Origin: an uncultured Draconibacterium sp.
Lineage (GTDB): Bacteria; Bacteroidota; Bacteroidia; Bacteroidales; FEN-979
Reading direction: 5' to 3'
DNA: 61,964 nucleotides
Assembly: GCA_964355945.1 (NCBI GenBank)
Contig: CAYHGE010000010.1
Coordinates: 1-61,964 of the forward strand
A program made the translations under genes and the position numbers. Below are positions 16,778 to 35,583 of the stretch, piece after piece. The notes under the pieces are model-generated. The model was not told where the DNA came from, ran no database searches, and worked only from the letters and a program-made list of their open reading frames with translations. Every line of letters begins with the position of its first letter. Within the stretch, counting starts at the first letter, position 1.

Positions 16778-18433
16778 TTGGAACCCATGAGGAAGTTATT
16801 TAAACCGAAATCAGCAATACTGATTTTTTTGGCAGTCGTCTGCCTCTTTTCTGGACGCTTGAATGCCCAGAACAACCCACCGCTCACCGTTGCGATTTAC
16901 GATTCTGCGGCAACAACAGGCTACATTTTTCTGGCACCTTACATTTTAACACCGCCATACACCTACGATCACCCGCAAATGATCCTCGACCGTTATGGAA
17001 ACACCGTCTATTACCGTGTTTTTATGAACGGTGGTATTGCAGCGACCACTGCCGATTTTAAACTCCAGTCCAATTGTTTGATGAGTTTTTACTCGCCAAT
17101 TCTCGGTAAATTCTATCTGATGGACAGCACTTTTTCGGTGGTCGATTCAGTAAGTGCCGGCAATGGTTTCGGAACCGACACCCACGAACTTCAGATACTT
17201 TCAGATGGGCATTATCTCATACTGGGAAGGGAGATGCGTGTGATGAACCTCACAGCTTACCATTGGTTCGGCCCTTCACATAATTTGCCCGGGAGTCCAA
17301 ATGCCGAGGTGACCGGCTCTGTGGTGCAGGAACTGGATGAGAATAAAAATGTCATCTTTCAGTGGAAAGCGCATGATCATTTTGATTTCGGAGATGTTGA
17401 CCCTTTTTGGCTCAGCAACCCGACATCGGTTGACTGGACCCACTCCAATGCACTCGAACGCGATTTCGACGGGAATATCCTCCTATCCTCCCGGCATTTC
17501 AATGAGATTACGAAGATCAGGAAAACTGATGGTGGCATCATCTGGCGCATGGGAGGGAAAAGCAATGAATTTGTTTTTACAAACGATACTTTAGGATATA
17601 CAGGGCAGCACGATATTCGCAGGTTGTCCGACGGGCATGTCACACTATGGGACAATGGGCAGTATACCGACCCGCCGGTTGGAAGGGCTTTGGAGTTCAG
17701 TCTTGACGAAACAGCAAAAACAGCTACACTGGAATGGGGTTATATTCAGGATTCAGGGATGTTCAGTTATGCCATGGGAAATCAACAACGGCTTTTGAAT
17801 GGGGACCGTTTTCTAACCTACGGATTTATTTCACCACCATATCCAATGGTCGCCCACGTTAAACCCGATAGTACCAAAGTGATGGAGATTTTCGCACCAC
17901 CGGGATATGGTTGCTACCGTGCATTTAATTATGAGACATTACCTTTTTCATTAAACCGGCCGGATTCTCATTGTGAAAAGAATGGCGATGTCTGGTATTT
18001 GGTGGCTGAGCCCGGGCACAGTGAATATTTATGGTCCACAGGTGAAACCACCCAGTCAATTCAGGTTACAACACCCGGAAGGTATCAGTTTTTTGTTCCT
18101 TATGGGAATGATGGCCATATAGGTTCAGAGATCATTGTGGTTAATAATTTATCCGGACAGGAAGATGAGTTCACAGAAATTGAAGATCAGGATTTTCGCA
18201 TATTTCCAAATCCCACCCCGGGTAACTTTACGATAGCATCCGCGAACATCCATTTTCGGGAGAAGGTTGCAGTAGAATTATATTCGATGCTTGGGACACG
18301 GATACTATCCATTGACCTGACCGGTACCATTAACGAACATCTGTCTCTAGGGAAATTTCCCGCAGGGCTCTATTTTGTCAGAATAGTGGCTGATGACAAG
18401 GTGGAAACTATCAAATTGGTGAAACGAAACTAA
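16778..18433 (+). CDS. Arylsulfotransferase (ASST) family protein with T9SS C-terminal domain
   Basis: DTHEL, DWTHSN, GQHD motifs; C-terminal IFPNP...GLYFV..KLVK. Confidence 0.85.
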   Translation: MEPMRKLFKPKSAILIFLAVVCLFSGRLNAQNNPPLTVAIYDSAATTGYIFLAPYILTPPYTYDHPQMILDRYGNTVYYRVFMNGGIAATTADFKLQSNCLMSFYSPILGKFYLMDSTFSVVDSVSAGNGFGTDTHELQILSDGHYLILGREMRVMNLTAYHWFGPSHNLPGSPNAEVTGSVVQELDENKNVIFQWKAHDHFDFGDVDPFWLSNPTSVDWTHSNALERDFDGNILLSSRHFNEITKIRKTDGGIIWRMGGKSNEFVFTNDTLGYTGQHDIRRLSDGHVTLWDNGQYTDPPVGRALEFSLDETAKTATLEWGYIQDSGMFSYAMGNQQRLLNGDRFLTYGFISPPYPMVAHVKPDSTKVMEIFAPPGYGCYRAFNYETLPFSLNRPDSHCEKNGDVWYLVAEPGHSEYLWSTGETTQSIQVTTPGRYQFFVPYGNDGHIGSEIIVVNNLSGQEDEFTEIEDQDFRIFPNPTPGNFTIASANIHFREKVAVELYSMLGTRILSIDLTGTINEHLSLGKFPAGLYFVRIVADDKVETIKLVKRN

Positions 18434-21513: not shown

Positions 21514-22359
21514 ATGAAAGCACTTCTCTCCTTGTTATTGCTGTTACCGTTTGTTGCAATCTCGCAGCCCGTTATGCCCCTTATTCCGGAAAATTTCCCG
21601 GATGCCATGGTCGGAGTATCTGCCACGTATGACATCGCCGCATTGCCTCAATATAATGATGAAGCGGCAGTTTTTATAGAATTTGGTTTCATGTCCCTCA
21701 TGGTTCAGGAAATTGCCTGGGCTACGGCAAAAATAAAAGTGGAAGTATATGAAATGGGGTCCCCTGATGCGGCATTCGGTATTTATTCGGTTTCGGCAAT
21801 GAAATGTTTGCAGCGGGATACGCTCACCTCGTATGATTGCCTCGGACCGTATCAGTACCAGGCAGCTTACGGGAATTTGTACATTTCCATCACCAGTGAA
21901 ACAGGTTCGGCTGCTGTCCGTGCCCTTTTTCTCCCCGTTGCCAATGCAATCATGCAGAAAAATTCCCGTCCTTTTTTCAAACTGCCGGATCCATTTAACC
22001 AGCCGCTGCTAAAAAATGCCAGGAAAACCCTTGTATTTATTCATGGTCCGGTAGGGCTTCAGAACTGCCTTTTTCCATGGCAGGATCTGTTTCTGACCGT
22101 GCGTTTCGGCATGTATGCCATCTCCCTGATGAATCCGCGGTCAGAGATGTATTTTGCGCGCATCTGGTTTGAAACACCTTCAGACCAGTTAAGGTTTCTT
22201 ACGTTGGCAGGGCTTACACAATCAGGAGTTCCGGTGCCCAATACCAATACCAATGATGGCCTTTACCGCGAATACCAGCAGGTGGATGATCAGACAATCT
22301 ATTTCCTGCAGAGCCAGGAACCCTGGCCGATAAGCGCAATTTTAAATCCGAGGAATTAA
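21514..22359 (+). CDS. Hypothetical exported protein (DUF6599-like)
   Basis: Signal peptide from MKALLS; VEVYEM.SPDAAFGIYS motif. Confidence 0.65.
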   Translation: MKALLSLLLLLPFVAISQPVMPLIPENFPDAMVGVSATYDIAALPQYNDEAAVFIEFGFMSLMVQEIAWATAKIKVEVYEMGSPDAAFGIYSVSAMKCLQRDTLTSYDCLGPYQYQAAYGNLYISITSETGSAAVRALFLPVANAIMQKNSRPFFKLPDPFNQPLLKNARKTLVFIHGPVGLQNCLFPWQDLFLTVRFGMYAISLMNPRSEMYFARIWFETPSDQLRFLTLAGLTQSGVPVPNTNTNDGLYREYQQVDDQTIYFLQSQEPWPISAILNPRN

Positions 22360-22415
22360 TTTCCGGAAACCGCGTCACCTTTTACCTGTTTTCCTGATTA
22401 AGCCATAAAATTCTC

Positions 22416-22910
22416 ATGGCATTATATCGGAAAAGGTACCGGATTGAATCAGCACGTTGGTCCGGTTGGGATTATTCTTCTGAAGGAACCTATTTTATTA
22501 CCATTTGCACGAAACCCCGGCTTGATGTTTTTGGACAGATCGTCAATAAAGCGATGGTATTGTCAAATCAGGGAATTGCCTTGGAGGAATGTTGGTGTTC
22601 AATTCCATTGCACTACAAAAACGCGGGATTAGGCGTTTTTGCCATCATGCCGGATCATTTTCATGGGATTATAATAATCGGCGGGACAACACAACCAATG
22701 GCCGGAAACCGACAAAACCGGCCATCATTGGGAAATATTATCGGATCATTCAAATCGGCGGCATCCAATAAAATTCATTCATCCGGATTTCCGGATTTTG
22801 GTTGGCAGGAACGATACAATGACAGGGTGATACGGGATGAACCGGAATTGAAACGAATTGAAAAATATATTCGGGATAATCCGAAAAATTGGAAACCACG
22901 GATATCGTAG
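22416..22910 (+). mobile_element. REP-associated tyrosine transposase (RAYT, Y1 HUH family)
   Basis: SARWSGWDYSSEGTYFITICT, MPDHFHG (HUH), WQERYNDRVIR, YIRDNPKNW; stop codon lies in a REP palindrome. Confidence 0.88.
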
Positions 22911-22934
22911 AGACGGGGCATGCCCCGTCTCTAC
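22907..22934. repeat. GTAG-type REP palindrome
   Basis: Perfect 28-bp palindrome GTAGAGACGGGGCATGCCCCGTCTCTAC. Confidence 0.9.
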
Positions 22935-22998
22935 GACAACGGAACAACAACCAATTTGCAGGACCATAAATGGAAACCCACGTTAAACCCCGGTCATA

Positions 22999-23682
22999 TT
23001 ATTTTATCAGCGACAACCCCTCCAGGGCCGACGTATCCTTTGGTTTGTTTAGCAGCACCTTGTTGAACATCACCTGGGCTTCACGTAATTTTCCAAGTTT
23101 GAAATTTGTCCAGGCAAACAGAATCATGGTGTCATAATCAAACGGATAGAGATTGATTACTTTCTCCAGATACTTTTCAGCCTTTGCATAGTCTTTCCGT
23201 CCATAATAGATGGAGCCCATGCGGTAATTAACGGTAGTGTTCTGAGGATCGATGGCCAGGATGTCATTGTACTGGGCAACTATGTGATCCCAGTTGCCAA
23301 GAGCGGAGGCAGGACTTGCAAATCCTAACTTTGCCTCAATTGAATATGGTTTTAATTTGATGGCTTTCTGATAATAGGCAGTCGATTCGGTGAAAAGCCC
23401 TCCAAGGTAGGTCAACCATCCAAGCCGGAGATTGGTCTCGTATGAATCTTCTGCATAAACTTTTTTTACTGTGGATATGGCATCGGCAAAATTTCCTCTT
23501 CCTTCATATTCCTGGCTTTTTGCAAAGGCTTCCTGCAGTGTGGCGTAATTAGTCTGGCTGAAAACGCTTAATGAAGCGAAAAAAAGTAGCGAAACTGCGA
23601 TGATGCGATATCGCGAAGCGACAAAATATTTTGCATTTTGCATTTTGCATTCTGCATTTTGCATTTTGTTTAAAATTTCCAT
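22999..23682 (-). CDS. Exported tetratricopeptide repeat protein
   Basis: Signal peptide (..VFS-Q), multiple TPR units; start overlaps the upstream gene. Confidence 0.88.
   Translation of the reverse strand: MEILNKMQNAECKMQNAKYFVASRYRIIAVSLLFFASLSVFSQTNYATLQEAFAKSQEYEGRGNFADAISTVKKVYAEDSYETNLRLGWLTYLGGLFTESTAYYQKAIKLKPYSIEAKLGFASPASALGNWDHIVAQYNDILAIDPQNTTVNYRMGSIYYGRKDYAKAEKYLEKVINLYPFDYDTMILFAWTNFKLGKLREAQVMFNKVLLNKPKDTSALEGLSLIK
23628..23669. repeat. Heptamer tandem repeat (ATTTTGC)x6 inside the TPR gene 5' end
   Basis: attttgc attttgc attttgc attctgc attttgc attttgt; encodes KMQNAECKMQNAKY. Confidence 0.9.
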
Positions 23683-25181
23683 GTGATTCCTCCGATTAGG
23701 GTATTTGTGTTATAGGGATTGTTTTTTGTTTTCTGGACTTCCTTGATTTGTTGTGTATCAGGATCCTCCTGTTTAATATAATATATCTGCTGGCTCTCTT
23801 TGCTGAAATACTGGTAAATGAGTGAAAGCTGAACGTGCTTTCCCACCAGGAACATCAGCGTTGCGCCTCCCCGGTAATTAATAATGTCGCTGTTGTTATA
23901 AACAACAGAACCATTGGAAATATTGGCGTTGGTGTAATCGCCATAATAGAAATTCGCTTCACCCCACATCCAGGGCGTGATTTTAGCGCCTAAAACCTGG
24001 CTGAACAACAGCCGCTTGTCTCTGCCTTGCATGAATCCGGTCACAGTCGTGGTGCCATAAAGGTTGAGGTTGCCTAAGGGATAATAGGAGAGGGAGGCAC
24101 CTAGTTGCTTTTGTTTATATCCATTCAGGTTCGACCAGCTTCCCGACAATCCGACATTTAAAAGGCCAAAGTCTTTTGTGATTGCCAGTGCTGCCACATA
24201 GTTGTTGAAGGAGGTGTCTTTTTGGGAGAATGAATAGTTTAATTGAGGGTACGACCAATTATAAGTGATGTTTGTGGAATTAGAATGAAACAAGGGGGCA
24301 TCAGCGGTTTCAGTCCGGTAAGATGAATTGGTCATGGTATAAGCTACATGCATGAAGTGAAATGCGGGCATGATTCTGAACCCTGATCCGGGGGCATATG
24401 AGGCCCCGATATGAAGTTCGTGCTGACTCACATGGTACCTGAAACTTGTATCATAAACAGCCCATTGATAACCATAGTTATACCATTGTCCGGAATCTTT
24501 TGGTGTTACATTGTACAATACAGTGTCTTGCAGCCCGGTAAACTTTTGCTCCCCCCTTCCATACTGAATGTACTTCGTTTTGGTAAAGTTGAGATAATTA
24601 TACGCAAATGAGAGGCCAATCCGGTTCGAAACCCTCATCTTCAGGCTGAGATTGCTGTAAAAACTATTGCCATAAAGATCCTGCTCCCCGTAAATACTGT
24701 CTTTCCCCATCAAAGTAGAGAGATTCGCCGGGTTTGCATTGCTGCTCAATGTATAACCGCTTTCCACATGAACATCCTGTACAACTTTGTCTATGGATTC
24801 CCTCGCTTCATTGGTCATAAAAGGCTCCAACTTGAAGGCCTGATCAGCCTGGTTGGAAAAAGTATATGCGTAATACAAATAATCGGCAATGATCGGATCC
24901 TGGGAATTAAATTCTCTTGCCTTCTTCAGATGGATGGATGCCTGGTAATATTTGGATTTGTTATAATAGGAAATCCCCATTCTTGTGCGCAGATAGTAGT
25001 AATCGATGTCCAGCTGCAAGGCCTGTTTCCCCACCAGGATCACACTGTCCCATTTTTTCTCCTCATAACAGCGGTAAGTCAGACGATCGACAGTTGCGAA
25101 ATCGAGTTTGACTGCTGCCATAGAAGAACCGCTGGTTAGCGAGAAAATGATGAATGCGAAGAACAGGATGTTAAATTTCAT
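23670..25181 (-). CDS. TPR + outer-membrane beta-barrel protein
   Basis: Signal peptide, N-terminal TPR helices, Tyr/Gly/Asn-rich strands, C-terminal GGITWKF. Confidence 0.72.
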   Translation of the reverse strand: MKFNILFFAFIIFSLTSGSSMAAVKLDFATVDRLTYRCYEEKKWDSVILVGKQALQLDIDYYYLRTRMGISYYNKSKYYQASIHLKKAREFNSQDPIIADYLYYAYTFSNQADQAFKLEPFMTNEARESIDKVVQDVHVESGYTLSSNANPANLSTLMGKDSIYGEQDLYGNSFYSNLSLKMRVSNRIGLSFAYNYLNFTKTKYIQYGRGEQKFTGLQDTVLYNVTPKDSGQWYNYGYQWAVYDTSFRYHVSQHELHIGASYAPGSGFRIMPAFHFMHVAYTMTNSSYRTETADAPLFHSNSTNITYNWSYPQLNYSFSQKDTSFNNYVAALAITKDFGLLNVGLSGSWSNLNGYKQKQLGASLSYYPLGNLNLYGTTTVTGFMQGRDKRLLFSQVLGAKITPWMWGEANFYYGDYTNANISNGSVVYNNSDIINYRGGATLMFLVGKHVQLSLIYQYFSKESQQIYYIKQEDPDTQQIKEVQKTKNNPYNTNTLIGGITWKF

Positions 25182-27388
25182 CGGCCGCTTACCAGTTTTA
25201 CTTCGGTTGTATTTTCGTTTTCATGAATAGTAAAACGCTCCAGACCATGAATACCGACAAACATTTCACACTCCATTTTCTTTATCTCCATATTGCCAAC
25301 CCTGGCCGATACTTCTGACCTTAAACGAATATTGGTTTGCATTATTGCATCTTCCATGCCAAGGTAGCTCAGGAGATATTCTGAACGGGTAAACAACATG
25401 AAAGGCGCTGCAAAGTCCTGAAAAACTCCCGCAATCCTGTTGTTGAAAGTATTCACAGGATATTGGTCTTTTACAAGAAGGTTCCGGTAGTAACCCAGCA
25501 TCACCTTGTAGGCTCCCAGGAAAAACTTGAAGAGAATCGACGACCTGTCTCCCTCAAAATGGGTAAAATAATGAATGTCGCCGTCGTTCCTGAACCATGC
25601 CCGTGAATGTGTTTTTTCACAATAGATATAAGTCTGGTTTATTGCATCAACCTGCACTTCCCAGCCAACAAGATACTCTTTACCGTTTTCGGGGGTTACC
25701 ATGAGCTTGAACTCCTGTCCCGGGATGAAATGAAATGCCTTTTCAAGGGATGCATTTTTACTGATATTTGAAACCATCACATTGTTCTCAGGGGTGGCAT
25801 ACGATTTCAACTCAAATGCCCCGCTTTTATGGCGGATGTAATGACTGATTGGATAGTCCAGCGTACGTGAACCTATATAGGGTGTGCTCTGGATCTGAAA
25901 GTGGATATGAGGCACCGGTGAACGTCCTGAGTTTCCACAGGCTGCCACAACCTGCCCCTTTTTAACGGAATCGCCGGCGGTAACTTTAAAACTTCCCTTT
26001 TTCAAATGAGACAATTTTGAGTACAGCTGATCGGTATGCCTCAGAATCAGGGTGTTCCCCCAGTTGTGTTCCAGGTCAACATTGCCAATGTCATTTTCTT
26101 CAACATCATCAACGATCTCCTCCACTGTGCCATCCGCCGGTGCGATCACCGGTTTGTTATAGGCGAAATACTCTTCCCGGCTGCTGCCATCCCGGGTGTA
26201 ACTTAGGCCGTCATCGTCCATCACCTCAAAATCCCAGGCATGACGCCAGTCGCCCTGGTGGGTGAATTTACCGTTGTGGCTTTGAGTCACCTTCCATTCA
26301 CCCCAGAAAGGCAGAATAAACGGGTAATAGAGTGACTTGCCAAAACGCGACTTGTAATTGACATGTGAATACAGGTTTTTCTCCGGTGAAAATTGTTGAT
26401 AAACCACCAGTTCAGGTTTGTCAAAAAACCGTTCCCTGAACTTAAGCGCGTAGAGGAATATCAGCACCACCAGGTTGAACGGGAGGGAATAAACCGATAG
26501 CTGGAAGATTGTAAAAATAGCCTGGGTACTGGTAAGTAGTATGGAAATCAATGGTGTGAGCAAAATAACCCATAAGAATGACCATCGAGAGGGGATGATG
26601 AAAAATCCGCCAACTGCAATTGCCGTAAGGATGAAGTTGAATCCGATGAAACCATAGCTCAGCTCACGAATGTCTGCTCCAATGAAATGGTAGTAGGCAT
26701 AAGCGGAAAAAAAACCCACCAGCGACAGGATAAATGCAATGCGGGAATAGATCAGCAGCCCTATTGAAATAAGGACCCCTGCAAAAAGGTGGTATTGGAA
26801 GAAGATCGCCCCCAGGGAAGTAAAATAAAGCCGCAGTGATTCAGGAAGGCCGAGGTCAGCCAGCCAGTTGTAGGAGACCACCATCCGCTGTCCGCCAAGC
26901 ATGAACATCTCGTTGGCCATGTAGATTCCCCGTTCGCTCACATGCAGCGTTGTAAATTGGCGTGTGGCAAGACTTACCAGCCATGTGCCCAGTAAAAAGG
27001 AGAGGCTTAAAAAGGGTAAACCATACTTGCCAACCACCCCTTCCAGGAACAGCGTAAGAAAAAGGGTAAGCATGGAGGCAAACACAAGAACAATGAAAAA
27101 TTCGCCTCCGGGCTGGTAATAAACCCCTAATCCCAGGCCAACAAGCAAACTGTTGAACCCGTAATACCCTTTTTTTATGTTGATCCGGTTGAACCCGATC
27201 AGGTATGCCAGGATATTCGTAACCATTACTGCCACCACGCCACTTATCCCGGCCCAAAAGTCGAAAAACGAAACAGCAATCAGAATCAGCGAAAATATCC
27301 TGCTGTTGGAAAAAAATATCTGAGTGTAGCTGTTCAGAATACTCGACAGAAAGGAGGGGAAAGTGGATGTCAGGCTTTTATAGTTCAT
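25178..27388 (-). CDS. Urea-transporter-family membrane domain fused to M23 peptidase and a C-terminal domain
   Basis: Duplicated UT signatures (QIFF...GYYGFN...GLPF; AIFF...GFIGFN...SLPFN); M23 motifs TH.G...AWD, PVIAPADG, WGN, HLKKGS, GNSGRSPVPHIH. Confidence 0.85.
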   Translation of the reverse strand: MNYKSLTSTFPSFLSSILNSYTQIFFSNSRIFSLILIAVSFFDFWAGISGVVAVMVTNILAYLIGFNRINIKKGYYGFNSLLVGLGLGVYYQPGGEFFIVLVFASMLTLFLTLFLEGVVGKYGLPFLSLSFLLGTWLVSLATRQFTTLHVSERGIYMANEMFMLGGQRMVVSYNWLADLGLPESLRLYFTSLGAIFFQYHLFAGVLISIGLLIYSRIAFILSLVGFFSAYAYYHFIGADIRELSYGFIGFNFILTAIAVGGFFIIPSRWSFLWVILLTPLISILLTSTQAIFTIFQLSVYSLPFNLVVLIFLYALKFRERFFDKPELVVYQQFSPEKNLYSHVNYKSRFGKSLYYPFILPFWGEWKVTQSHNGKFTHQGDWRHAWDFEVMDDDGLSYTRDGSSREEYFAYNKPVIAPADGTVEEIVDDVEENDIGNVDLEHNWGNTLILRHTDQLYSKLSHLKKGSFKVTAGDSVKKGQVVAACGNSGRSPVPHIHFQIQSTPYIGSRTLDYPISHYIRHKSGAFELKSYATPENNVMVSNISKNASLEKAFHFIPGQEFKLMVTPENGKEYLVGWEVQVDAINQTYIYCEKTHSRAWFRNDGDIHYFTHFEGDRSSILFKFFLGAYKVMLGYYRNLLVKDQYPVNTFNNRIAGVFQDFAAPFMLFTRSEYLLSYLGMEDAIMQTNIRLRSEVSARVGNMEIKKMECEMFVGIHGLERFTIHENENTTEVKLVSGR

Positions 27389-28743
27389 TTATCAAACTTT
27401 GCAAGGTGTGGTGGCACCTTCTCCATTCCATTCATGTTTTCAAGTGACTCCTTGCTGCGGATGAGATGCGGTTTTTCATCGAGATCGATGAGTACCACAT
27501 TGGGCCTTAAGGTAATAAACTGCATCCACTGCGTCATATTGTATGCGCCCACGTTGTGGATCACCACATGTTCACCTTTGTTGAGCAGGGGAAGATTGGT
27601 GCTTTCACGCACAACATCAATGTTCATGCAGAGCGGGCCATACAGGCAGGTATCTTCTGTATATTGCGTGAATGACTGAGCCGGCGTGATTTTGTGATCG
27701 TACCAGAATGCAGTGAAAAGGATATTCACCCCGACATCGAGAATGGTATTGCGGCGGCCGGTACTCGAACGCTTGTTGGAAACCACGGATCCTAAAAGAT
27801 AGCCGGCTTCATCAACAAGGGCACGCCCTGTTTCCAGGATCAGCAAAGGCAACTTGTCTTTTTTGAAATTACTGTTGATCAAAGCCGTGGATATGGCTTC
27901 GGCGAAATCGTCAAAAGATGGATTGGTGTCGCTTCCTGGCAGATAGGCCCCTTTAAGTGTGTTTTTTGAAGCAAAACCGCCTCCCAGGTCGATATACTTG
28001 ATCTCATGGCTGAACTTTGCTTCTACAGCCAAAGCCAGTTCGGCAAGTTTTGCTGCTGCAATGCCATACGCAAAAGGCGAAAGCATGAACGTTCCGATAT
28101 GGGAATGAAGTCCGACGAGTTCCATTTTTCCGGATTGCATGATCTTGTTGAGTGCGTCCCAGGCCTGGCCGTTTTCATAGTTGAATCCGAAGCGGTCCCA
28201 CATAGGATATACACCTGTATCCATGTTTACCCTGATGGCTACTCTCGGACGCTTGTTCAGCTTTCCCGAAAGTTCAGTGATGGAGTAGAGCTCGTCAAGG
28301 TGATCGATATGAATCAGCGAATCGTTGTTGATCGCTTTTGTAAGGTCTTCCTCGCTCTTGTCTGGACCATTGAAGATGATTTTCCTGCCATCCACCCCAA
28401 GGCTGATTGCCTTGTCATACTCAAAGCCCGACACTACCTCAGCCCAGGATCCCTCCTGGTGAAAGATGCTGCAAACGGCATTGAGATAGTTTGTCTTATA
28501 CGACCAGGCAAATTGCACCTTTGGATAACGTGTTTCAAATGCTTTCCTGGCTTTTTTGATGGTGGTTCGAATAGTCCGCTCGGAAATGACGAACAGGGGT
28601 GAGCCATACTCCTTTATTAAACTGTTAACTGCAACCCCGTCAATATGGGTCATGGGTTGGTACTCTGTTCTTGTTCCGAATTTATTGGGCATGCCGGTTT
28701 CAAGCTTCATAATAACCGGTCGTTCATATCTTAACTTGCTCAT
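27385..28743 (-). CDS. Fold-III PLP-dependent decarboxylase (diaminopimelate decarboxylase-like, substrate uncertain)
   Basis: WSYKTN (PLP Lys), HSHIG, DLGGG, ETGR, GPLCMNID, GAY. Confidence 0.88.
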   Translation of the reverse strand: MSKLRYERPVIMKLETGMPNKFGTRTEYQPMTHIDGVAVNSLIKEYGSPLFVISERTIRTTIKKARKAFETRYPKVQFAWSYKTNYLNAVCSIFHQEGSWAEVVSGFEYDKAISLGVDGRKIIFNGPDKSEEDLTKAINNDSLIHIDHLDELYSITELSGKLNKRPRVAIRVNMDTGVYPMWDRFGFNYENGQAWDALNKIMQSGKMELVGLHSHIGTFMLSPFAYGIAAAKLAELALAVEAKFSHEIKYIDLGGGFASKNTLKGAYLPGSDTNPSFDDFAEAISTALINSNFKKDKLPLLILETGRALVDEAGYLLGSVVSNKRSSTGRRNTILDVGVNILFTAFWYDHKITPAQSFTQYTEDTCLYGPLCMNIDVVRESTNLPLLNKGEHVVIHNVGAYNMTQWMQFITLRPNVVLIDLDEKPHLIRSKESLENMNGMEKVPPHLAKFDK

Positions 28744-28787
28744 AATTATGTTCTTAATTCAAAATTCGTTAATCAATATTCAATATT

Positions 28788-29834
28788 CTACAGCTCCCCG
28801 TAAATGCTGATCTGCTCGAACTCTGACCGGTCAACGATCATGTCCCAGGAGTAACGGATGAACATCTTTCCCACATCATAAGAGGTAAATGGCAGCACTT
28901 TTTCGCCCATGGCCAGGTTGACCAAAGCCTCAGGAATGTTCTGTCCCACGCCTACAGCGAGGTAGATCCATGCAGGAAGCCTTGGGTTGATCTCGAGCAG
29001 GTATAGTTCACCATCCTTGTTTTTCATCAGCTCAAGCTCAAACCCGCCACGCCATTTGGTGTTTTTCAGAAATTTACGGGTCATGTCGAGCATCTTTTCA
29101 TCTGAGATGGTAATCCCTCCCCATGCTTTGCCCTTATCCGTAATGTATTGCTTACGCATCGGAACAGCTCCGATGGTATTCCCTTTGCCATCCCCCAGCC
29201 CGGTTACATTGAATTCAGTTCCATGGATAAACTCCTGAATAATGATCGGAAGTCCCCACTTGGCGCTGATCTTATTGAAGTAGCTCTTCACCTGTTCAAT
29301 GCTGTATGCAATGGAAGCATCGTAGAATTTCCCCTTCACAATCATCGGAAAGGAAAATTCTGAAGGAAGGCTGTGAATAGTGTTTAAGTCGTAAATCACT
29401 TTGCTTTTCGGAACACTGATGTTGTATTTTTTCCCGAAATCGTTGAGGTTTACCTTATGGCGCTCTTCAAACTGGTGCATGGTAGGCAGGAACATGTGAA
29501 TGCCCATGGCCTTGAGTTTCGACTCCAGTTTGATAAACGGGTAAAGCTCTGCATCGAAGTTTGGAATGATCACGTCAAGCTTCTCTTTGTCATGAATATA
29601 TTCTATCCGGGAAAGCAGGGTATCGATTCCGGCTGACGGATATGGAATGGAATATGTCCGGTCAACCAGGTCGTGCATATAAATGCCCGGCTCCAGGGAT
29701 TCGTAAGATAGCCCGATGATACCAACGTCGAATGAAGCAGCCTCCCTCAATGCCCTGATCACGGAAACCCCCGGTCCCGGCGAGTCAATGGCGTTCAGCC
29801 CTGTGACGGCAATATTAAGCTTTCGTTTCTTCAT
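28788..29834 (-). CDS. ATP-grasp ligase (carbamoyl-phosphate-synthase-like fold)
   Basis: FPMIVKG, IIQEFIHGTEF, ELELM, LLEINPRLPAW; start at MKKRKL, overlapping the pqqD-like stop. Confidence 0.88.
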   Translation of the reverse strand: MKKRKLNIAVTGLNAIDSPGPGVSVIRALREAASFDVGIIGLSYESLEPGIYMHDLVDRTYSIPYPSAGIDTLLSRIEYIHDKEKLDVIIPNFDAELYPFIKLESKLKAMGIHMFLPTMHQFEERHKVNLNDFGKKYNISVPKSKVIYDLNTIHSLPSEFSFPMIVKGKFYDASIAYSIEQVKSYFNKISAKWGLPIIIQEFIHGTEFNVTGLGDGKGNTIGAVPMRKQYITDKGKAWGGITISDEKMLDMTRKFLKNTKWRGGFELELMKNKDGELYLLEINPRLPAWIYLAVGVGQNIPEALVNLAMGEKVLPFTSYDVGKMFIRYSWDMIVDRSEFEQISIYGEL

Positions 29835-30075
29835 GGCTTTCCAATAGGTTATGATGTTCAAGGATAGAGATAAAGTCGTGGTAGTCTTTCTCGAAGGTGG
29901 CCAGGTCTGTTGAATATTTATCCATGATGACCGTGTTTATCTGAACCGGAGTTTTTTCATCCCGGATGAGGTTGAGAATCTCGACTCCGATAGGATTTAT
30001 CGAATAAGATTCCCCCGTCACAGGATTGAAGAGCAGTCCGGCTTCGCTGACAGCAACATTTTTTCGTAGTTTCAT
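29815..30075 (-). CDS. PqqD-family protein (RiPP recognition element-like)
   Basis: 86 aa: LLFNPVTGESYSINPIGVEIL..I...I...Y......EKD..DFI..L...NLL. Confidence 0.85.
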   Translation of the reverse strand: MKLRKNVAVSEAGLLFNPVTGESYSINPIGVEILNLIRDEKTPVQINTVIMDKYSTDLATFEKDYHDFISILEHHNLLESHEETKA

Positions 30076-30089
30076 AATTTTAATTTTAC

Positions 30090-30117
30090 GTAGAGACGGG
30101 CCATGGCCTGTCTTTAC
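30090..30117. repeat. GTAG-type REP (variant) in the 5' UTR of the pqqD-like operon
   Basis: GTAGAGACGGGCCATGGCCTGTCTTTAC. Confidence 0.8.
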
Positions 30118-30127
30118 AATGATGATG

Positions 30128-30192
30128 CAATATTACATCTAATCAGCCCCCTGGCTGTTACGAAATTTAATAAAGGTTGTATGAAATTTTAT
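30128..30192 (-). promoter_or_regulatory. Tandem 21-bp-period boxes plus -7-like element, candidate AraC-dependent promoter of the operon
   Basis: Minus strand ATAAAATTTCATACAA and AAATTTCGTAACAG, then TAATATTG at 30135-30128. Confidence 0.6.
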
Positions 30193-30210
30193 CATGTCCC
30201 TGTATGGTTA

Positions 30211-30810
30211 TTAATTACTGTTAATTAGACCGTCCAGCCCGGACCGGCCTGAAGCAGGGGTTACCCTGTACTCAGTCACAGAAATGCCGGTGATCGATTT
30301 GAATTGGGTGGACAGGTATTGTACACTGCTGTAACCCATCATATAAGCGATCTCGCTGAGGGTAAGTTCTCCGTATTCAATAAGTTCTTTAACCTTCTCA
30401 ATCTTGTGGAGGATGGTAAATTTCTCGAGTGTGGTAATTTCATGCTTTGAAAAGAGGGATGAAATATAGGGATATGACATGCCGAACCGCTCCACCAGGT
30501 AATCTGAGTTGCGTACCATGGCATTGTAAGTCGAGTTGTGAACCAGATCAACGACCGCCTGTTTGATGTGTTCTACCAGTATCTTCTCCTTGTCGCTGAT
30601 GATTTCAAACCCGTAAACTTCCAGGATCGATTCTACTTTTTTCCATGTGATTTTCTTCGGATCCACTGAAAGGATCAGTAGTCCAAGCTTAATGTCTTGA
30701 ATTTCAATGCCATCCAGTGATAGCTCCTTCCTTAGCAGATGAATGCAACAGCTACAGGTCATGTTTTTTACATGAATTGTCCTGAAGGGAAGTGCTTTTT
30801 TTTTCTTCAT
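30211..30810 (-). CDS. AraC family regulator with N-terminal HMA-like (Cys) domain
   Basis: KNMTCSCC N-terminus; LTLSEIA..MGYSSVQYLSTQFK..TG HTH. Confidence 0.92.
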   Translation of the reverse strand: MKKKKALPFRTIHVKNMTCSCCIHLLRKELSLDGIEIQDIKLGLLILSVDPKKITWKKVESILEVYGFEIISDKEKILVEHIKQAVVDLVHNSTYNAMVRNSDYLVERFGMSYPYISSLFSKHEITTLEKFTILHKIEKVKELIEYGELTLSEIAYMMGYSSVQYLSTQFKSITGISVTEYRVTPASGRSGLDGLINSN

Positions 30811-30819
30811 AGACTTGGA

Positions 30820-32079
30820 TTATACGAGGTCATACCGGTATGAATCCTGGCGGATAAAGATAAATAATAAAATGGTAAAGGCCCATAAAGAAGATCCTCC
30901 ATAACTGACAAAAGGAAGCGGAATGCCAATAACCGGCACCAGACCGAGGGTCATCCCGATGTTGATGGCAAAGTGGAAAAAGAGGATTGAAGCCAGTCCA
31001 TACCCGTAAAACCTGCTGAACCGCGATCGCTGTCGCTCAGCCATCAGGATGACCCGGATGAAAAGACTCATATATAAGATGAGCAAAACCGATGAGCCCA
31101 GAAAACCCCACTCTTCACCAACTGTACAAAAGATGAAATCGGTGCTTTGCTCCGGCACGAAATTATATTTGGTTTGGGTCCCCTGTAAAAAGCCTTTACC
31201 GAAAAACTTGCCCGAACCGATGGCGATGAGGGACTGGTTAACATTGTAACCGGCTCCCTTTAGGTCAACATCCTGCCCGAGCAACACGTGAATGCGGTTA
31301 CGCTGGTGTGGCTCCAGGATGTTATTGACAGCAAAATTAATGGAAAATATAAAAGCGACCGACCCCAGGAAGATCATGCTGATGATCATGATGGAACGAA
31401 GCTTTCTGTTGCTGAAAAAATAAAATGTACCGGCAATAACCAGTAGCAGTGCAGCAAGAATGAGTTTTGGTACCACCAGCGCCAGGATGCCAAGCACCGG
31501 CAATACGATGAAGGCAAGAGGGATGAACCCTGTTAGTCCGGCGCGGTACAGCACAATCACCAGTGCCAGAAAGACGATGGCCGAACCGGTGTCATGCTGC
31601 AGCAATACAATCACCGCAGGCAAAAGGATAATGGCGGAAGCAATGACGAGGCTCCGGAATCGTGCAAGACTTACATCCAGGGTGCCAAGATACTTAGCCA
31701 AAGCCAGAACCGTAGCCATTTTGGCAAATTCCGCAGGCTGGATACCGAAGCCGCCAATGGCAAACCAACCTTTTGAACCGGCTATTTCCCGCCCCGAAAA
31801 AATAACAACCACGAGCAAAAACAGGAAAAAGCCATAGATAAACCAGGCAAATTGTGAGAAAAATTTAGGATCGATGATCAGGATGCCCATTGCCAGCAAC
31901 ATGGCTGCAATGATAAAAATCATCTGTTTGCCATACTTCTGTGTAAGGTCAACTATGTGATTATGATTTTCGTTATACACCGCGGCATAGATGTTCAGCC
32001 AGCCAATGAAGATCAGCGCGAGATAAAGCCCCACCACCAGCCAGTCAATCCGGTAGAATATTCCCTTGTCCTCTCTCAC
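30820..32079 (-). CDS. rodA: Rod shape-determining SEDS glycosyltransferase RodA
   Basis: QPAEFAK, QHDTGS, GYNVNQSLIAIGSG, PEQSTDFIF, GIPLPFVSYGGSS. Confidence 0.96.
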   Translation of the reverse strand: MREDKGIFYRIDWLVVGLYLALIFIGWLNIYAAVYNENHNHIVDLTQKYGKQMIFIIAAMLLAMGILIIDPKFFSQFAWFIYGFFLFLLVVVIFSGREIAGSKGWFAIGGFGIQPAEFAKMATVLALAKYLGTLDVSLARFRSLVIASAIILLPAVIVLLQHDTGSAIVFLALVIVLYRAGLTGFIPLAFIVLPVLGILALVVPKLILAALLLVIAGTFYFFSNRKLRSIMIISMIFLGSVAFIFSINFAVNNILEPHQRNRIHVLLGQDVDLKGAGYNVNQSLIAIGSGKFFGKGFLQGTQTKYNFVPEQSTDFIFCTVGEEWGFLGSSVLLILYMSLFIRVILMAERQRSRFSRFYGYGLASILFFHFAINIGMTLGLVPVIGIPLPFVSYGGSSLWAFTILLFIFIRQDSYRYDLV

Positions 32080-34605: not shown

Positions 34606-35583
34606 ATGAAATCAAAAGAAAACGTATTTGAAATAACATCAGCGCATGAGTTCGAAGTTTATGCTCTGGAGTTATTCCGTTATCAGTACAGGCATAATGA
34701 AGTTTATCGTGCTTTTGTAGATGCCCGCGGGGTAACGCCTCAAAACATTTCAAAGGTGGAGGAGATCCCTTTTCTGCCCATCGAATTCTTCAAAACACAT
34801 GAAGTAGTTTGCGGCAGTGTTCCTCCCCAGGCTGTTTTTCGGAGCAGCGGTACCACGGGCATGGTCCGAAGCCGGCATCTGGTAACCGATTTGAACATTT
34901 ATCGCCGGTCCTTTATTAAAGGATTTGAAAGGTGTTACGGTGATCCGCAGGATGTTCAGTTTCTGGCCCTTACGCCAACTCCTGAACAGGCGCCGGACTC
35001 CTCTCTCGTGTACATGATCCAGAAACTGATGGATATCAGCAGCAGCCCTGAAAATGGGTTTTTCCTGGCGAGTCATTCCGGATTAAGTGCCCGTTTGCGG
35101 CAACGACGGGCAAGAAATAAAAAGGTGGTGCTGATCGGGTTGACTTATGCTCTGGTTGATTTTGCCAATAGCTATCCCGGCGACTACTCCCCGCTCATCG
35201 TGATCGAAACAGGCGGGATGAAAGGCCATCGCACTGAAATCACACGCGACGAACTTCATTACCTGCTTTGCCCTGCTTTTGGGATTGAACAGATCCATTC
35301 GGAATATGGAATGACCGAGTTGCTTTCGCAAGCATGGTCGCAGGGCGAAGGCAGGTTCAGCACGCCTCCCTGGATGAAAGTAATGATCCGTGATACAAAT
35401 GATCCACTGAGCTATGTTGGTCCCGGAGAAACAGGCGGGATCAATATTGTCGACCTTGCCAACCAGGACTCCTGCAGCTTTATCGCAACACAGGACCTTG
35501 GCCGTATGCACTACGACGGCCAGTTTGAAGTCCTCGGCCGCTTTGAGGCTTCTGATGCACGCGGGTGCAGCCTGTTGATTTGA
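34606..35583 (+). CDS. LuxE-like acyl-protein synthetase / acyltransferase
   Basis: IPFLPIEFFK, SSGTTG, ETGGMKG, SEYGMTELLSQA, TQDLG, GCS. Confidence 0.88.
   Translation: MKSKENVFEITSAHEFEVYALELFRYQYRHNEVYRAFVDARGVTPQNISKVEEIPFLPIEFFKTHEVVCGSVPPQAVFRSSGTTGMVRSRHLVTDLNIYRRSFIKGFERCYGDPQDVQFLALTPTPEQAPDSSLVYMIQKLMDISSSPENGFFLASHSGLSARLRQRRARNKKVVLIGLTYALVDFANSYPGDYSPLIVIETGGMKGHRTEITRDELHYLLCPAFGIEQIHSEYGMTELLSQAWSQGEGRFSTPPWMKVMIRDTNDPLSYVGPGETGGINIVDLANQDSCSFIATQDLGRMHYDGQFEVLGRFEASDARGCSLLI

Follow-up and report, generated by a model that had tools for sequence, protein, structure and literature searches.

This study concerns a six-gene operon on the minus strand of a 61,964-nucleotide stretch of DNA (the window, meaning the whole stretch that was analysed; contig CAYHGE010000010.1 of assembly GCA_964355945.1) from an uncultured Draconibacterium sp. 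of the Bacteroidales. According to the list of open reading frames (ORFs) of the window, the six co-oriented genes occupy positions 22999–30075, and they specify a PqqD-like protein, an ATP-grasp ligase, a pyridoxal phosphate (PLP)-dependent decarboxylase, a fusion of a urea-transporter (UT) channel to an M23 metallopeptidase, an outer-membrane protein combining a tetratricopeptide repeat (TPR) domain with a beta-barrel, and a secreted TPR protein. They constitute a conserved, co-regulated unit with a 3+3 modularity, and their arrangement recurs far beyond chance. Our preferred reading, which we consider plausible though short of probable, is that the first three proteins build an amide-linked amine in the cytoplasm, that the M23 domain frees this product where the UT pore opens, and that the product then leaves the cell. 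The features to which the text refers are listed below, with protein lengths in amino acids (aa).

29815–30075, minus strand: PqqD-like protein (fold of the RRE, the recognition element of ribosomally synthesised and post-translationally modified peptides, RiPPs), 86 aa, signal peptide absent; Pfam PqqD 1.4e-8
28788–29834, minus strand: ATP-grasp ligase, carbamoyl-phosphate-synthase-like (PRK12767-type), 348 aa from its likely start; Pfam ATPgrasp_Ter 1e-10
27385–28743, minus strand: PLP decarboxylase of the alanine-racemase fold, diaminopimelate decarboxylase (DAPDC)/FigC clade, 452 aa; Orn_Arg_deC_N 1.2e-29, Orn_DAP_Arg_deC 6.2e-12
25178–27388, minus strand: UT-M23 fusion, 736 aa; Pfam UT 4.1e-60 and Peptidase_M23 4.7e-16
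26387–27388, minus strand: UT-fold channel domain, residues 1–334 of UT-M23; from Pfam and VIA Z
25796–26326, minus strand: M23 (LytM-type) metallopeptidase domain, residues ~355–531 of UT-M23; from Pfam, VIA Z and aligned histidines
25181–25756, minus strand: C-terminal beta-rich domain, residues ~545–736 of UT-M23; predicted local distance difference test score (pLDDT) of the model ~80–94
23670–25181, minus strand: outer-membrane protein, 503 aa, with signal peptide, TPR domain (~25–132) and beta-barrel (133–503); from an AlphaFold2 model
22999–23682, minus strand: secreted TPR protein, 227 aa, signal-peptide-like N-terminus, lipobox Cys absent; TPR_2 1.4e-14
30211–30810, minus strand: AraC-family protein, a candidate operon regulator whose N-terminal domain is weakly HMA-like; HTH_18 7e-13, HMA E 0.076
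30126–30190, minus strand: conserved promoter/operator of two half-sites and a TAATATTGCA box, found upstream of the PqqD gene in most related loci

Conservation and regulation of the cassette

The ATP-grasp ORF is listed as 28788–29861, with a TTG start and 357 aa, but the ATG at 29834, giving 348 aa, is the likely start; homologous ORFs measure 347–351 aa in 35 of 55 cases. With this start the first two genes overlap by 20 bp, the next two are separated by 44 bp, and the remaining neighbours overlap by 4, 4 and 13 bp, exactly the six-gene arrangement and junction sizes given in a preliminary description made from the letters of the window alone. The 13-bp overlap between the barrel and TPR genes is present in distant loci as well.

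That description had suggested testing whether the six genes co-occur across genomes, and they do. With the UT-M23 protein as query, species-representative genomes yielded 107 relatives, of which 80 were kept as loci, and collinearity was scored by tblastn with all six proteins. Fifty-three of the 80 loci carry all six genes in one order and on one strand. Among the remaining 27, 20 are cut at contig ends and seven (L035, L046, L055, L056, L058, L061 and L077) have only the downstream half, UT-M23 with or without the barrel and TPR genes, and lack the PqqD, ligase and decarboxylase genes despite ~10 kb of upstream flank. Five of these seven split genomes were followed up, and all five retain an intact PqqD-ligase-decarboxylase triad at another place in the genome (ligase identity 71–77%). 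When ORFs of at least 80 aa in the 80 loci were clustered, wide sharing was limited to the six genes (77, 72, 66, 65, 55 and 55 loci); of the flanking genes, AraC occurs in 26 loci, PBP2 in 17 and rodA in 16, all of them close relatives, and other flanks are variable. Four hundred genomes, sampled evenly from the phylum, gave an equally clear picture when ligase presence was called at E <= 1e-40. The ligase was found in 30 genomes, and full-length UT-M23 in exactly those 30, on the contig of the ligase; the PqqD profile matched all 30 and, weakly, two others; and the barrel profile matched 12 genomes, all within the 30. Six further genomes gave M23-only matches (E ~1e-31 to 1e-33).

The idea that the six genes are two unrelated neighbouring modules without a common function is highly improbable: the modules are separable, as the seven loci with only the last three genes and a high-GC subgroup without UT-M23 (see below) illustrate, but their presence and absence coincide perfectly in the 400 genomes, and split genomes retain both halves together with a shared, otherwise near-unique operator.

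Some loci have additional or missing parts. An IF-2B family gene (of the methylthioribose-1-phosphate-isomerase-like family) lies between the decarboxylase and UT-M23 genes in five of the 80 loci (e.g., L072:9123-9950). In the complete genome carrying L097 (G021:C1, ~2248–2254 kb), a DUF4011 helicase with a REase_MTES_1575 domain, resembling a defence-island gene, separates the M23 and barrel genes. L100 (G094:C21) is a reduced variant consisting of ligase, a 176-aa ORF, decarboxylase, a 127-aa ORF and a 521-aa UT-M23 that lacks the C-terminal domain; its PqqD gene is on a different contig, and barrel and TPR genes were not found nearby.

The cassette appears to extend beyond the phylum. A length-extended protein search found single proteins joining ATP-grasp and decarboxylase in three clusters (894, 903 and 759 aa; 38–46% identical to the ligase), and the one that was compared, P0135, is 43% identical to the decarboxylase over its full length and keeps the active-site motifs. 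With one fusion as query, a metagenome scan yielded 80 loci on contigs which are described here by their GC content, 33–73%. UT-M23 follows the decarboxylase in 57 of these, where as a rule a PqqD gene precedes them and a TPR gene follows, and the TPR gene stands beside UT-M23 on high-GC contigs as well. Beyond the five cassette genes, no other gene is widely conserved in the metagenome loci. In a high-GC subgroup UT-M23 was not found nearby, and L111, alone of this subgroup, was seen to have a single ligase-decarboxylase ORF. Three high-GC loci have a P450 gene (L125, L128) and/or a TylF-like methyltransferase gene (L127, L128) after the ligase-decarboxylase pair, and the subgroup also has amine oxidase, CAAX-type protease and GNAT-MarR genes nearby; the P450 and TylF-like neighbours give these loci a resemblance to specialised-metabolite clusters. 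With 30 of 400 species genomes of the phylum, and contigs of 33–73% GC, the cassette is common, and it is under strong purifying selection. No description of it was found in the literature, where the UT-M23 fusion appears only as a note on domain architecture; the relevant passages of PMC12998343 report the domain combination without a function or gene context.

A single promoter behind the operon had been suggested, and one conserved promoter/operator does lie upstream of the PqqD gene. It consists of two similar half-sites ~21 bp apart (TTATA(A/C)CA-like), followed after ~20 nt by the TAATATTGCA box, which stands ~50 nt before the PqqD start and which we take to be a Bacteroidota-type -7 element. 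Most related loci, among them distant ones, have it ahead of PqqD; from some clades it is missing in this form. The pattern has one match in the genome of the window, at the operon, and none in a reversed control. In four of the five split genomes the operator stands before both sub-operons, the fifth lacking this form, and the four genomes contain the pattern only at the two sub-operons, plus one extra site in one genome. This third copy (G002:C22:1994-2049, locus L110) lies ~270 nt before a gene for a secreted arylsulfotransferase-family protein (Pfam 9.3e-21). That protein was considered as a counterpart of the ASST-like cargo of the type IX secretion system (T9SS) specified at 16778–18433 of the window, but the similarity is not significant (BLASTP E 0.05). 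Generic signals were uninformative, as a scan for sigma-70 and terminator consensus sequences gave numbers close to those of shuffled sequence (promoters 15 vs 12.6, terminators 10 vs 7.8), and an Rfam scan of 22000–31500 found no riboswitch or other known RNA, only two sub-threshold chance matches to eukaryotic families.

The AraC gene adjoins PqqD in 26 of the 80 related loci. One distant genome, from another class, has it immediately before PqqD, and in a second genome, which belongs to the class of the window, it lies ~2.5 kb ahead of PqqD. The HMA-like segment at the N-terminus of the AraC neighbour carries an MTCxCC motif. A metal-sensing CxxC was considered for it but is not secure, given the HMA E value of 0.076 and the replacement of the first Cys by Ser in several homologues. 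In the 5' untranslated region of PqqD (30092–30114, minus strand), after the -7-like box and ahead of the start codon, there is a GC-rich palindrome, GAGACG...CGTCTC, which also occurs in the close relatives L009, L011, L012, L062 and L084, the last with three tandem copies; it may be an element like the repetitive extragenic palindromes or a regulatory hairpin.

Four of the genes, those for the barrel, UT-M23, decarboxylase and ligase, are matched in part by contigs from three metatranscriptome runs (two studies, judged by code), with identities of at least 95% and mostly of at least 99%. One of these contigs spans the decarboxylase-ligase spacer and another barely spans the UT-M23/decarboxylase junction; such contigs prove neither transcription nor a single transcript, and the parts left uncovered (e.g., PqqD and much of ATP-grasp) are not to be read as silent. 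Many DNA and RNA contigs from lake metagenomes end exactly at the 44-bp ligase-decarboxylase spacer (28744–28787) and are dissimilar beyond it, which suggests co-existing strains with conserved genes and different spacers.

The PqqD-like protein, ligase and decarboxylase

The ATP-grasp gene adjoins the decarboxylase gene in all loci with sufficient flank. The ligase itself is distant from solved ATP-grasp enzymes (best profile matches carbamoyl-phosphate synthetase, 6e-11, and the 331-aa 2pn1, 8.5e-8) but well conserved among its homologues, with a mean column identity of 79% over 27 sequences; across classes the ligase retains 42–64% identity and the decarboxylase 47–68%. None of the six proteins reaches a curated NCBIfam cut-off, and none matches a PADLOC defence model.

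The best solved relative of the decarboxylase is FigC (7kh2), an N-citrylornithine decarboxylase (9.9e-59), with diaminopimelate (DAP) decarboxylases following at 1e-38. Judged by profile scores and motifs, it appears to belong nearer the FigC/SbnH/AcsE/BtrK clade than ornithine or arginine decarboxylases. The possibility that it is merely the genome's only LysA, which the preliminary description had left standing, can be set aside: a separate intact lysA of 384 aa, on another contig of the genome, scores 397.7 bits against the TIGR01048 cut-off of 297.9, while the operon enzyme scores 215, so that by these scores it is not the housekeeping LysA. Nor does it reach the cut-off of the FslC family (233 against 500). 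The PLP lysine K83, the histidine H215 and the catalytic cysteine C372 do not vary among 58 sequences, and neither do the motifs GPLCMNID and GAYNMTQWMQFI. The loop after the catalytic Cys reads GPLCMNID here, GPSCMQHD in FigC and C-E-(T/S)-G-D in aligned DAPDCs. The positions of the citrate-contacting R387 and N389 of FigC are occupied by Q405 and M407, in a segment invariant in the 58 sequences, and because of this the substrate is probably fixed and probably not citrate-like.

One more paralogue was noticed: a third lysA-like gene (G000:C90:1541-2761, locus L002; 220.5 bits, below the cut-off), adjoining a VitK2_biosynth gene (futalosine-route menaquinone) and a gene of the nucleoside-phosphorylase family. 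Ligase relatives of another kind are proteins P0125–P0134, ten clusters of 707–718 aa with 31–36% identity to the ligase, two of which are named from metagenome-assembled genomes of Candidatus Rokubacteria; in P0125, the only one of the ten that was scanned, Pfam shows two ATP-grasp stretches.

The pairing of an ATP-grasp ligase with a fold-III decarboxylase had been put forward as the logic of the operon, by analogy with butirosin and vibrioferrin, and it is strengthened by FigC as best solved relative and by the natural ATP-grasp-decarboxylase fusions. BtrJ and PvsA are ATP-grasp enzymes. According to passages of PMC7857480, FigC, SbnH, AcsE, MccE and BtrK form one DAPDC-related clade that decarboxylates side-chain-conjugated amino acids, and non-DAPDC members of this clade are likely devoted to specialised metabolism. 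As proposed for the cassette, in the FigA/FigC (FslA/FslC) route to rhizoferrin and in the SbnH, AcsE/PvsE and BtrJ/BtrK systems a ligase conjugates an amino-acid side chain through an amide or ester, after which a PLP decarboxylase of the DAPDC clade removes the alpha-carboxylate; the substrate of BtrK is a glutamylated carrier protein of 87 aa, close in length to the 86-aa PqqD-like protein (PMC7857480). The cassette differs from these routes in that its conserved genes include neither an NRPS-independent siderophore (NIS; IucA/IucC) synthetase nor an acyl carrier protein, its small protein having a PqqD fold instead, and in possessing UT-M23, TPR and barrel partners, which those pathways lack.

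Among solved structures the PqqD-like protein comes closest to TbiB1, a lasso-peptide RRE (3.3e-7). Lasso-peptide B1/RRE systems likewise have a stand-alone PqqD-fold protein, with a gene upstream of and overlapping that of the modifying enzyme; unlike in those systems, a precursor gene was not found at the cassette, and the combination with ATP-grasp and PLP-decarboxylase partners was not found in the literature. The N-terminal strands of the protein are invariant and its C-terminal tail is variable. A LysW-like carrier role by way of a conserved acidic C-terminus was considered and is ruled out, as the tail is not conserved. Prediction of a complex with the ATP-grasp enzyme gave a score of 0.00, which is no answer and bears neither way on binding, and a search for fused PqqD forms found none, which counts as weak evidence.

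The UT-M23 fusion and a proposed route out of the cell

The model of UT-M23 (pLDDT 81.1) contains a UT domain that superimposes on human UT-B with a VIA Z of 33.1 (root-mean-square deviation 2.8, 309 residues aligned) and on the Desulfovibrio vulgaris UT with Z 33.0. Passages of PMC11589576 describe solved UTs as having both termini intracellular, with a long intracellular loop and a C1 helix after helix 5b, and as recognising urea through a Q-Pa/T-5a/T-5b/Q-Pb motif. Pore residues were mapped by hand from these motifs. Both pore glutamines (Q23, Q198) are invariant in the cassette proteins, as are the residues of the cytoplasmic site (Q23, I/V24, F26, Y76 and S128); at T-5a there is an invariant Ser. 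In fold, pore glutamines and cytoplasmic urea site the domain agrees with the UT/SLC14 family, as represented by the D. vulgaris UT and UT-B (motif from PMC11589576); it differs in being fused to M23 and a further domain, in its altered outer site, and in scoring below the urea_trans_yut cut-off (125.8 against 274.6).

The M23 domain matches LytM, ShyA and Csd families (VIA Z ~14 to LytM domains), and H461, H494 and H496, aligned with catalytic and zinc histidines, are conserved in 45 of 45 sequences. A cytoplasmic location is predicted for it from the topology of UTs, from the positive-inside rule and from a natural split form that has no signal peptide. In all 45 sequences the lysines and arginines of loops favour the predicted cytoplasmic side (median 12 vs 4 in the others), with at least three positive charges after the last helix, and in the complete genome of L097 the UT part and the M23-plus-C-terminal part are two overlapping ORFs, the second lacking a signal peptide. 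Since the domain is predicted to lie in the cytoplasm, trimming of a product by M23 in the periplasm or at the sacculus, as had been imagined for an inner-membrane channel-peptidase, is unlikely. The C-terminal beta-domain gives middling matches to ApoB (lipovitellin; Z 9.1), the Parabacteroides lipoprotein BDI_3050 (Z 8.9) and LolA (Z 8.2), and an Atlas search with it found no usable match.

The 503-aa protein has no Pfam matches, but its AlphaFold2 model (pLDDT 91.1, predicted template modelling score 0.80) comprises a signal peptide, a TPR-like helical domain and a beta-barrel, bearing out an assignment originally made from the sequence alone. The N-terminal domain matches TPR proteins at Z ~14, a range common for repeats, and Atlas look-alikes are YaiO-type barrels with TPR. 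The barrel matches a FadL homologue best (Z 20.2, root-mean-square deviation 3.7, 283 aligned) and OmpG at 18.7; FadL, TodX, OmpG, Bacteroidota BAM-associated barrels and PorV fall within Z 17–19 (17.0–18.6 for BAM-associated barrels and PorV, 17.0 for PorV itself), PelB scores 14.0, and BcsC is among the Foldseek matches (2.1e-7). Compared with FadL it lacks the N-terminal hatch and has the TPR domain in its place. The barrel varies most, with 26–84% identity where the ligase has 67–97%; at its position a distant genome has a 280-aa protein, which hhalign relates to the barrel profile at E 0.0015 over just 56 columns. A signal peptide is present on the barrel protein and a signal-peptide-like N-terminus on the TPR protein.

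Under the preferred reading, these proteins would form two modules. In the first, cytoplasmic one, made up of the PqqD-like protein, the ATP-grasp ligase and the FigC/BtrK-clade decarboxylase, the ligase would form an amide between an amino-acid side chain and an acceptor, probably a peptide or small scaffold held by the PqqD-like protein, and the decarboxylase would strip the free alpha-carboxylate of the appended residue to leave a terminal amine. The second, an envelope module, would comprise the UT channel with its cytoplasmic M23 and beta-domain, the secreted TPR protein and, in many lineages, the TPR-barrel. Once cut loose by the M23 domain where the pore opens to the cytoplasm, the product would exit through the UT channel and then the outer-membrane barrel.

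A number of observations weigh against this proposal. The HxxxD zinc motif of M23 is irregular (H383-x-x-D386), with H383 present in 41 of 45 sequences; the M23-only proteins of other genomes that come nearest to it are secreted and have signal peptides; and the weak likeness of the C-terminal domain to periplasmic LolA-type folds fits poorly with a cytoplasmic site. A urea-type pore is narrow, and its outer site is altered here, with I, L, F or M at T-5b and Ile for the aromatic of 3b. The barrel is absent or replaced in some lineages, its profile detecting it in 12 of the 30 positive genomes, and one variant locus lacks the barrel, the TPR protein and the C-terminal domain together. The triad can work without UT-M23, because the high-GC subgroup has none nearby. 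Finally, no precursor peptide gene emerged near the cassette at 160 loci: among 583 small ORFs (18–75 aa) in it or within 500 bp of it none is conserved, and the small-ORF families, which reach at most seven closely related loci, are pieces or shadows of neighbouring genes.

It could further be speculated, although we regard this wider generalisation as doubtful, that the cassette is a trans-envelope device found in many phyla that would make, cut and vent a small amine or amide metabolite, with the UT fold as its inner-membrane conduit, assembly by ligase and decarboxylase on a scaffold held by the PqqD-like protein, M23 release at the pore, and a dedicated operator as a switch that might answer to metal or envelope stress. 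If the preferred reading holds, it would provide a function for UT-M23 fusions, so far noted only as a domain combination, an example of an M23 peptidase working inside the cell, and a non-urea role of the urea-channel fold in bacteria. The conserved operator, the 3+3 modularity and the availability of complete carrier genomes make the question directly testable by knockouts and metabolomics.

Flanking genes bear on the stress part of this idea only as a hint, the loci being closely interrelated. In one metagenome clade the flanks specify a ZraP/Spy-type Metal_resist protein, a YHS-domain protein and a multicopper oxidase with a twin-arginine translocation signal, while other clades, and likewise L024 of the Bacteroidales loci, have genes for a histidine kinase and a sigma-54 response regulator next to the cassette. 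Stress-type flanks of both kinds were seen in L136–L138, L146, L151 and L153–L156.

Competing explanations and neighbouring features

One alternative is that the triad adds and decarboxylates an amino acid on a peptidoglycan precursor or lipid-linked stem peptide, leaving a bound amine, while M23 and the beta-domain handle the precursor at the inner face of the membrane and the modification is read by the TPR proteins in the periplasm. The usual targets of M23 domains are peptidoglycan peptides, and the domain in UT-M23 matches the LytM, ShyA and Csd families. Some known ATP-grasp enzymes attach side-chain residues to precursors, an enzyme like DAP decarboxylase would need a free alpha-amino-acid end, such as stem-peptide DAP or a side-chain-linked residue offers, and the weak likeness of the C-terminal domain to lipid-binding half-barrels (Z 8–9) would suit a lipid-linked substrate. 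The genes rodA and PBP2 adjoin the operon in the window and in 16–17 of 80 loci, but this linkage is limited to close relatives, with different flanks elsewhere, and Mur, Fem, flippase and transpeptidase genes are not conserved with the cassette. An envelope modification would also leave the retained channel fold and its conserved pore residues unexplained, and it sits badly with the P450 and methyltransferase beside high-GC relatives. We consider it rather unlikely.

A classical RiPP pathway is likewise rather improbable. Here the precursor would be encoded elsewhere or be very small; it would be bound by the PqqD-like RRE, modified by ligase and decarboxylase, relieved of its leader by M23 and exported. 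A fusion of peptidase and transporter recalls the peptidase-containing bacteriocin exporters, the PqqD-like protein is closest to lasso-peptide RREs, and the P450, methyltransferase and CAAX-type protease near high-GC relatives would be at home in such a pathway. The decarboxylase MccE, of the same clade, acts on a microcin C intermediate, according to a passage of PMC7857480. Against this are the failure to find a conserved precursor candidate near the cassette, the difficulty that a typical peptide would not pass a urea-type pore, and the conservation of ligase and decarboxylase across classes, which together with the invariant pocket motif is unusually high for tailoring enzymes; because of that conservation, one fixed small substrate fits better than a variable peptide.

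The flow could also be inward, the barrel and UT channel importing a small amide, urea or a relative, for capture or conversion by the cytoplasmic enzymes. Flow through UT channels can go either way, and the urea site on the cytoplasmic side is conserved; the barrel resembles the uptake channels FadL, OmpG and CymA; and AraC-type regulators often control catabolic operons. Yet outer-membrane barrels that carry a TPR domain in the periplasm typically serve export, an ATP-grasp ligase with a FigC-clade decarboxylase is a biosynthetic pairing, and relatives cluster with tailoring enzymes. A search of the window's own genome (89% complete) gave no match to urease alpha; urea amidolyase was not searched for. 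Uptake or assimilation is considered quite improbable.

Export of a polymer was the explanation first suggested for the operon, and it now appears very unlikely. A polyamide or other polymer would be made, trimmed and extruded through a TPR/barrel exporter resembling PgaA, BcsC or AlgK/AlgE, which, like PelB, have a periplasmic TPR domain on or with an outer-membrane barrel; here too a TPR-plus-barrel protein is present, along with a separate TPR protein. M23 enzymes cleave unbranched glycine-type peptides, and one could speculate that repeated ligation and decarboxylation yield a side-chain-free polyamide. An exporter of this kind is nevertheless not indicated, because no synthase or glycosyltransferase is conserved with the cassette, nor any polymerase, among the 80 related loci and the metagenome loci. 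In addition, the barrel is nearer FadL, OmpG and PorV (Z 17–20) than PelB (14.0) and is the least conserved part of the cassette, and M23 is predicted to be cytoplasmic.

The surroundings of the operon in the window are Bacteroidota-like, with T9SS sorting domains and, upstream of the operon, rodA, PBP2 and the AraC-type gene. Immediately downstream, and convergent with it, a 164-aa ORF (22416–22910, plus strand) has a weak IS200-type transposase match (Y1_Tnp, E 0.0039) and is shared by few relatives. A gene for a LuxE-like acyl-protein synthetase (34606–35583, plus strand) stands upstream of the block of mreD-like, PBP2 and rodA genes.

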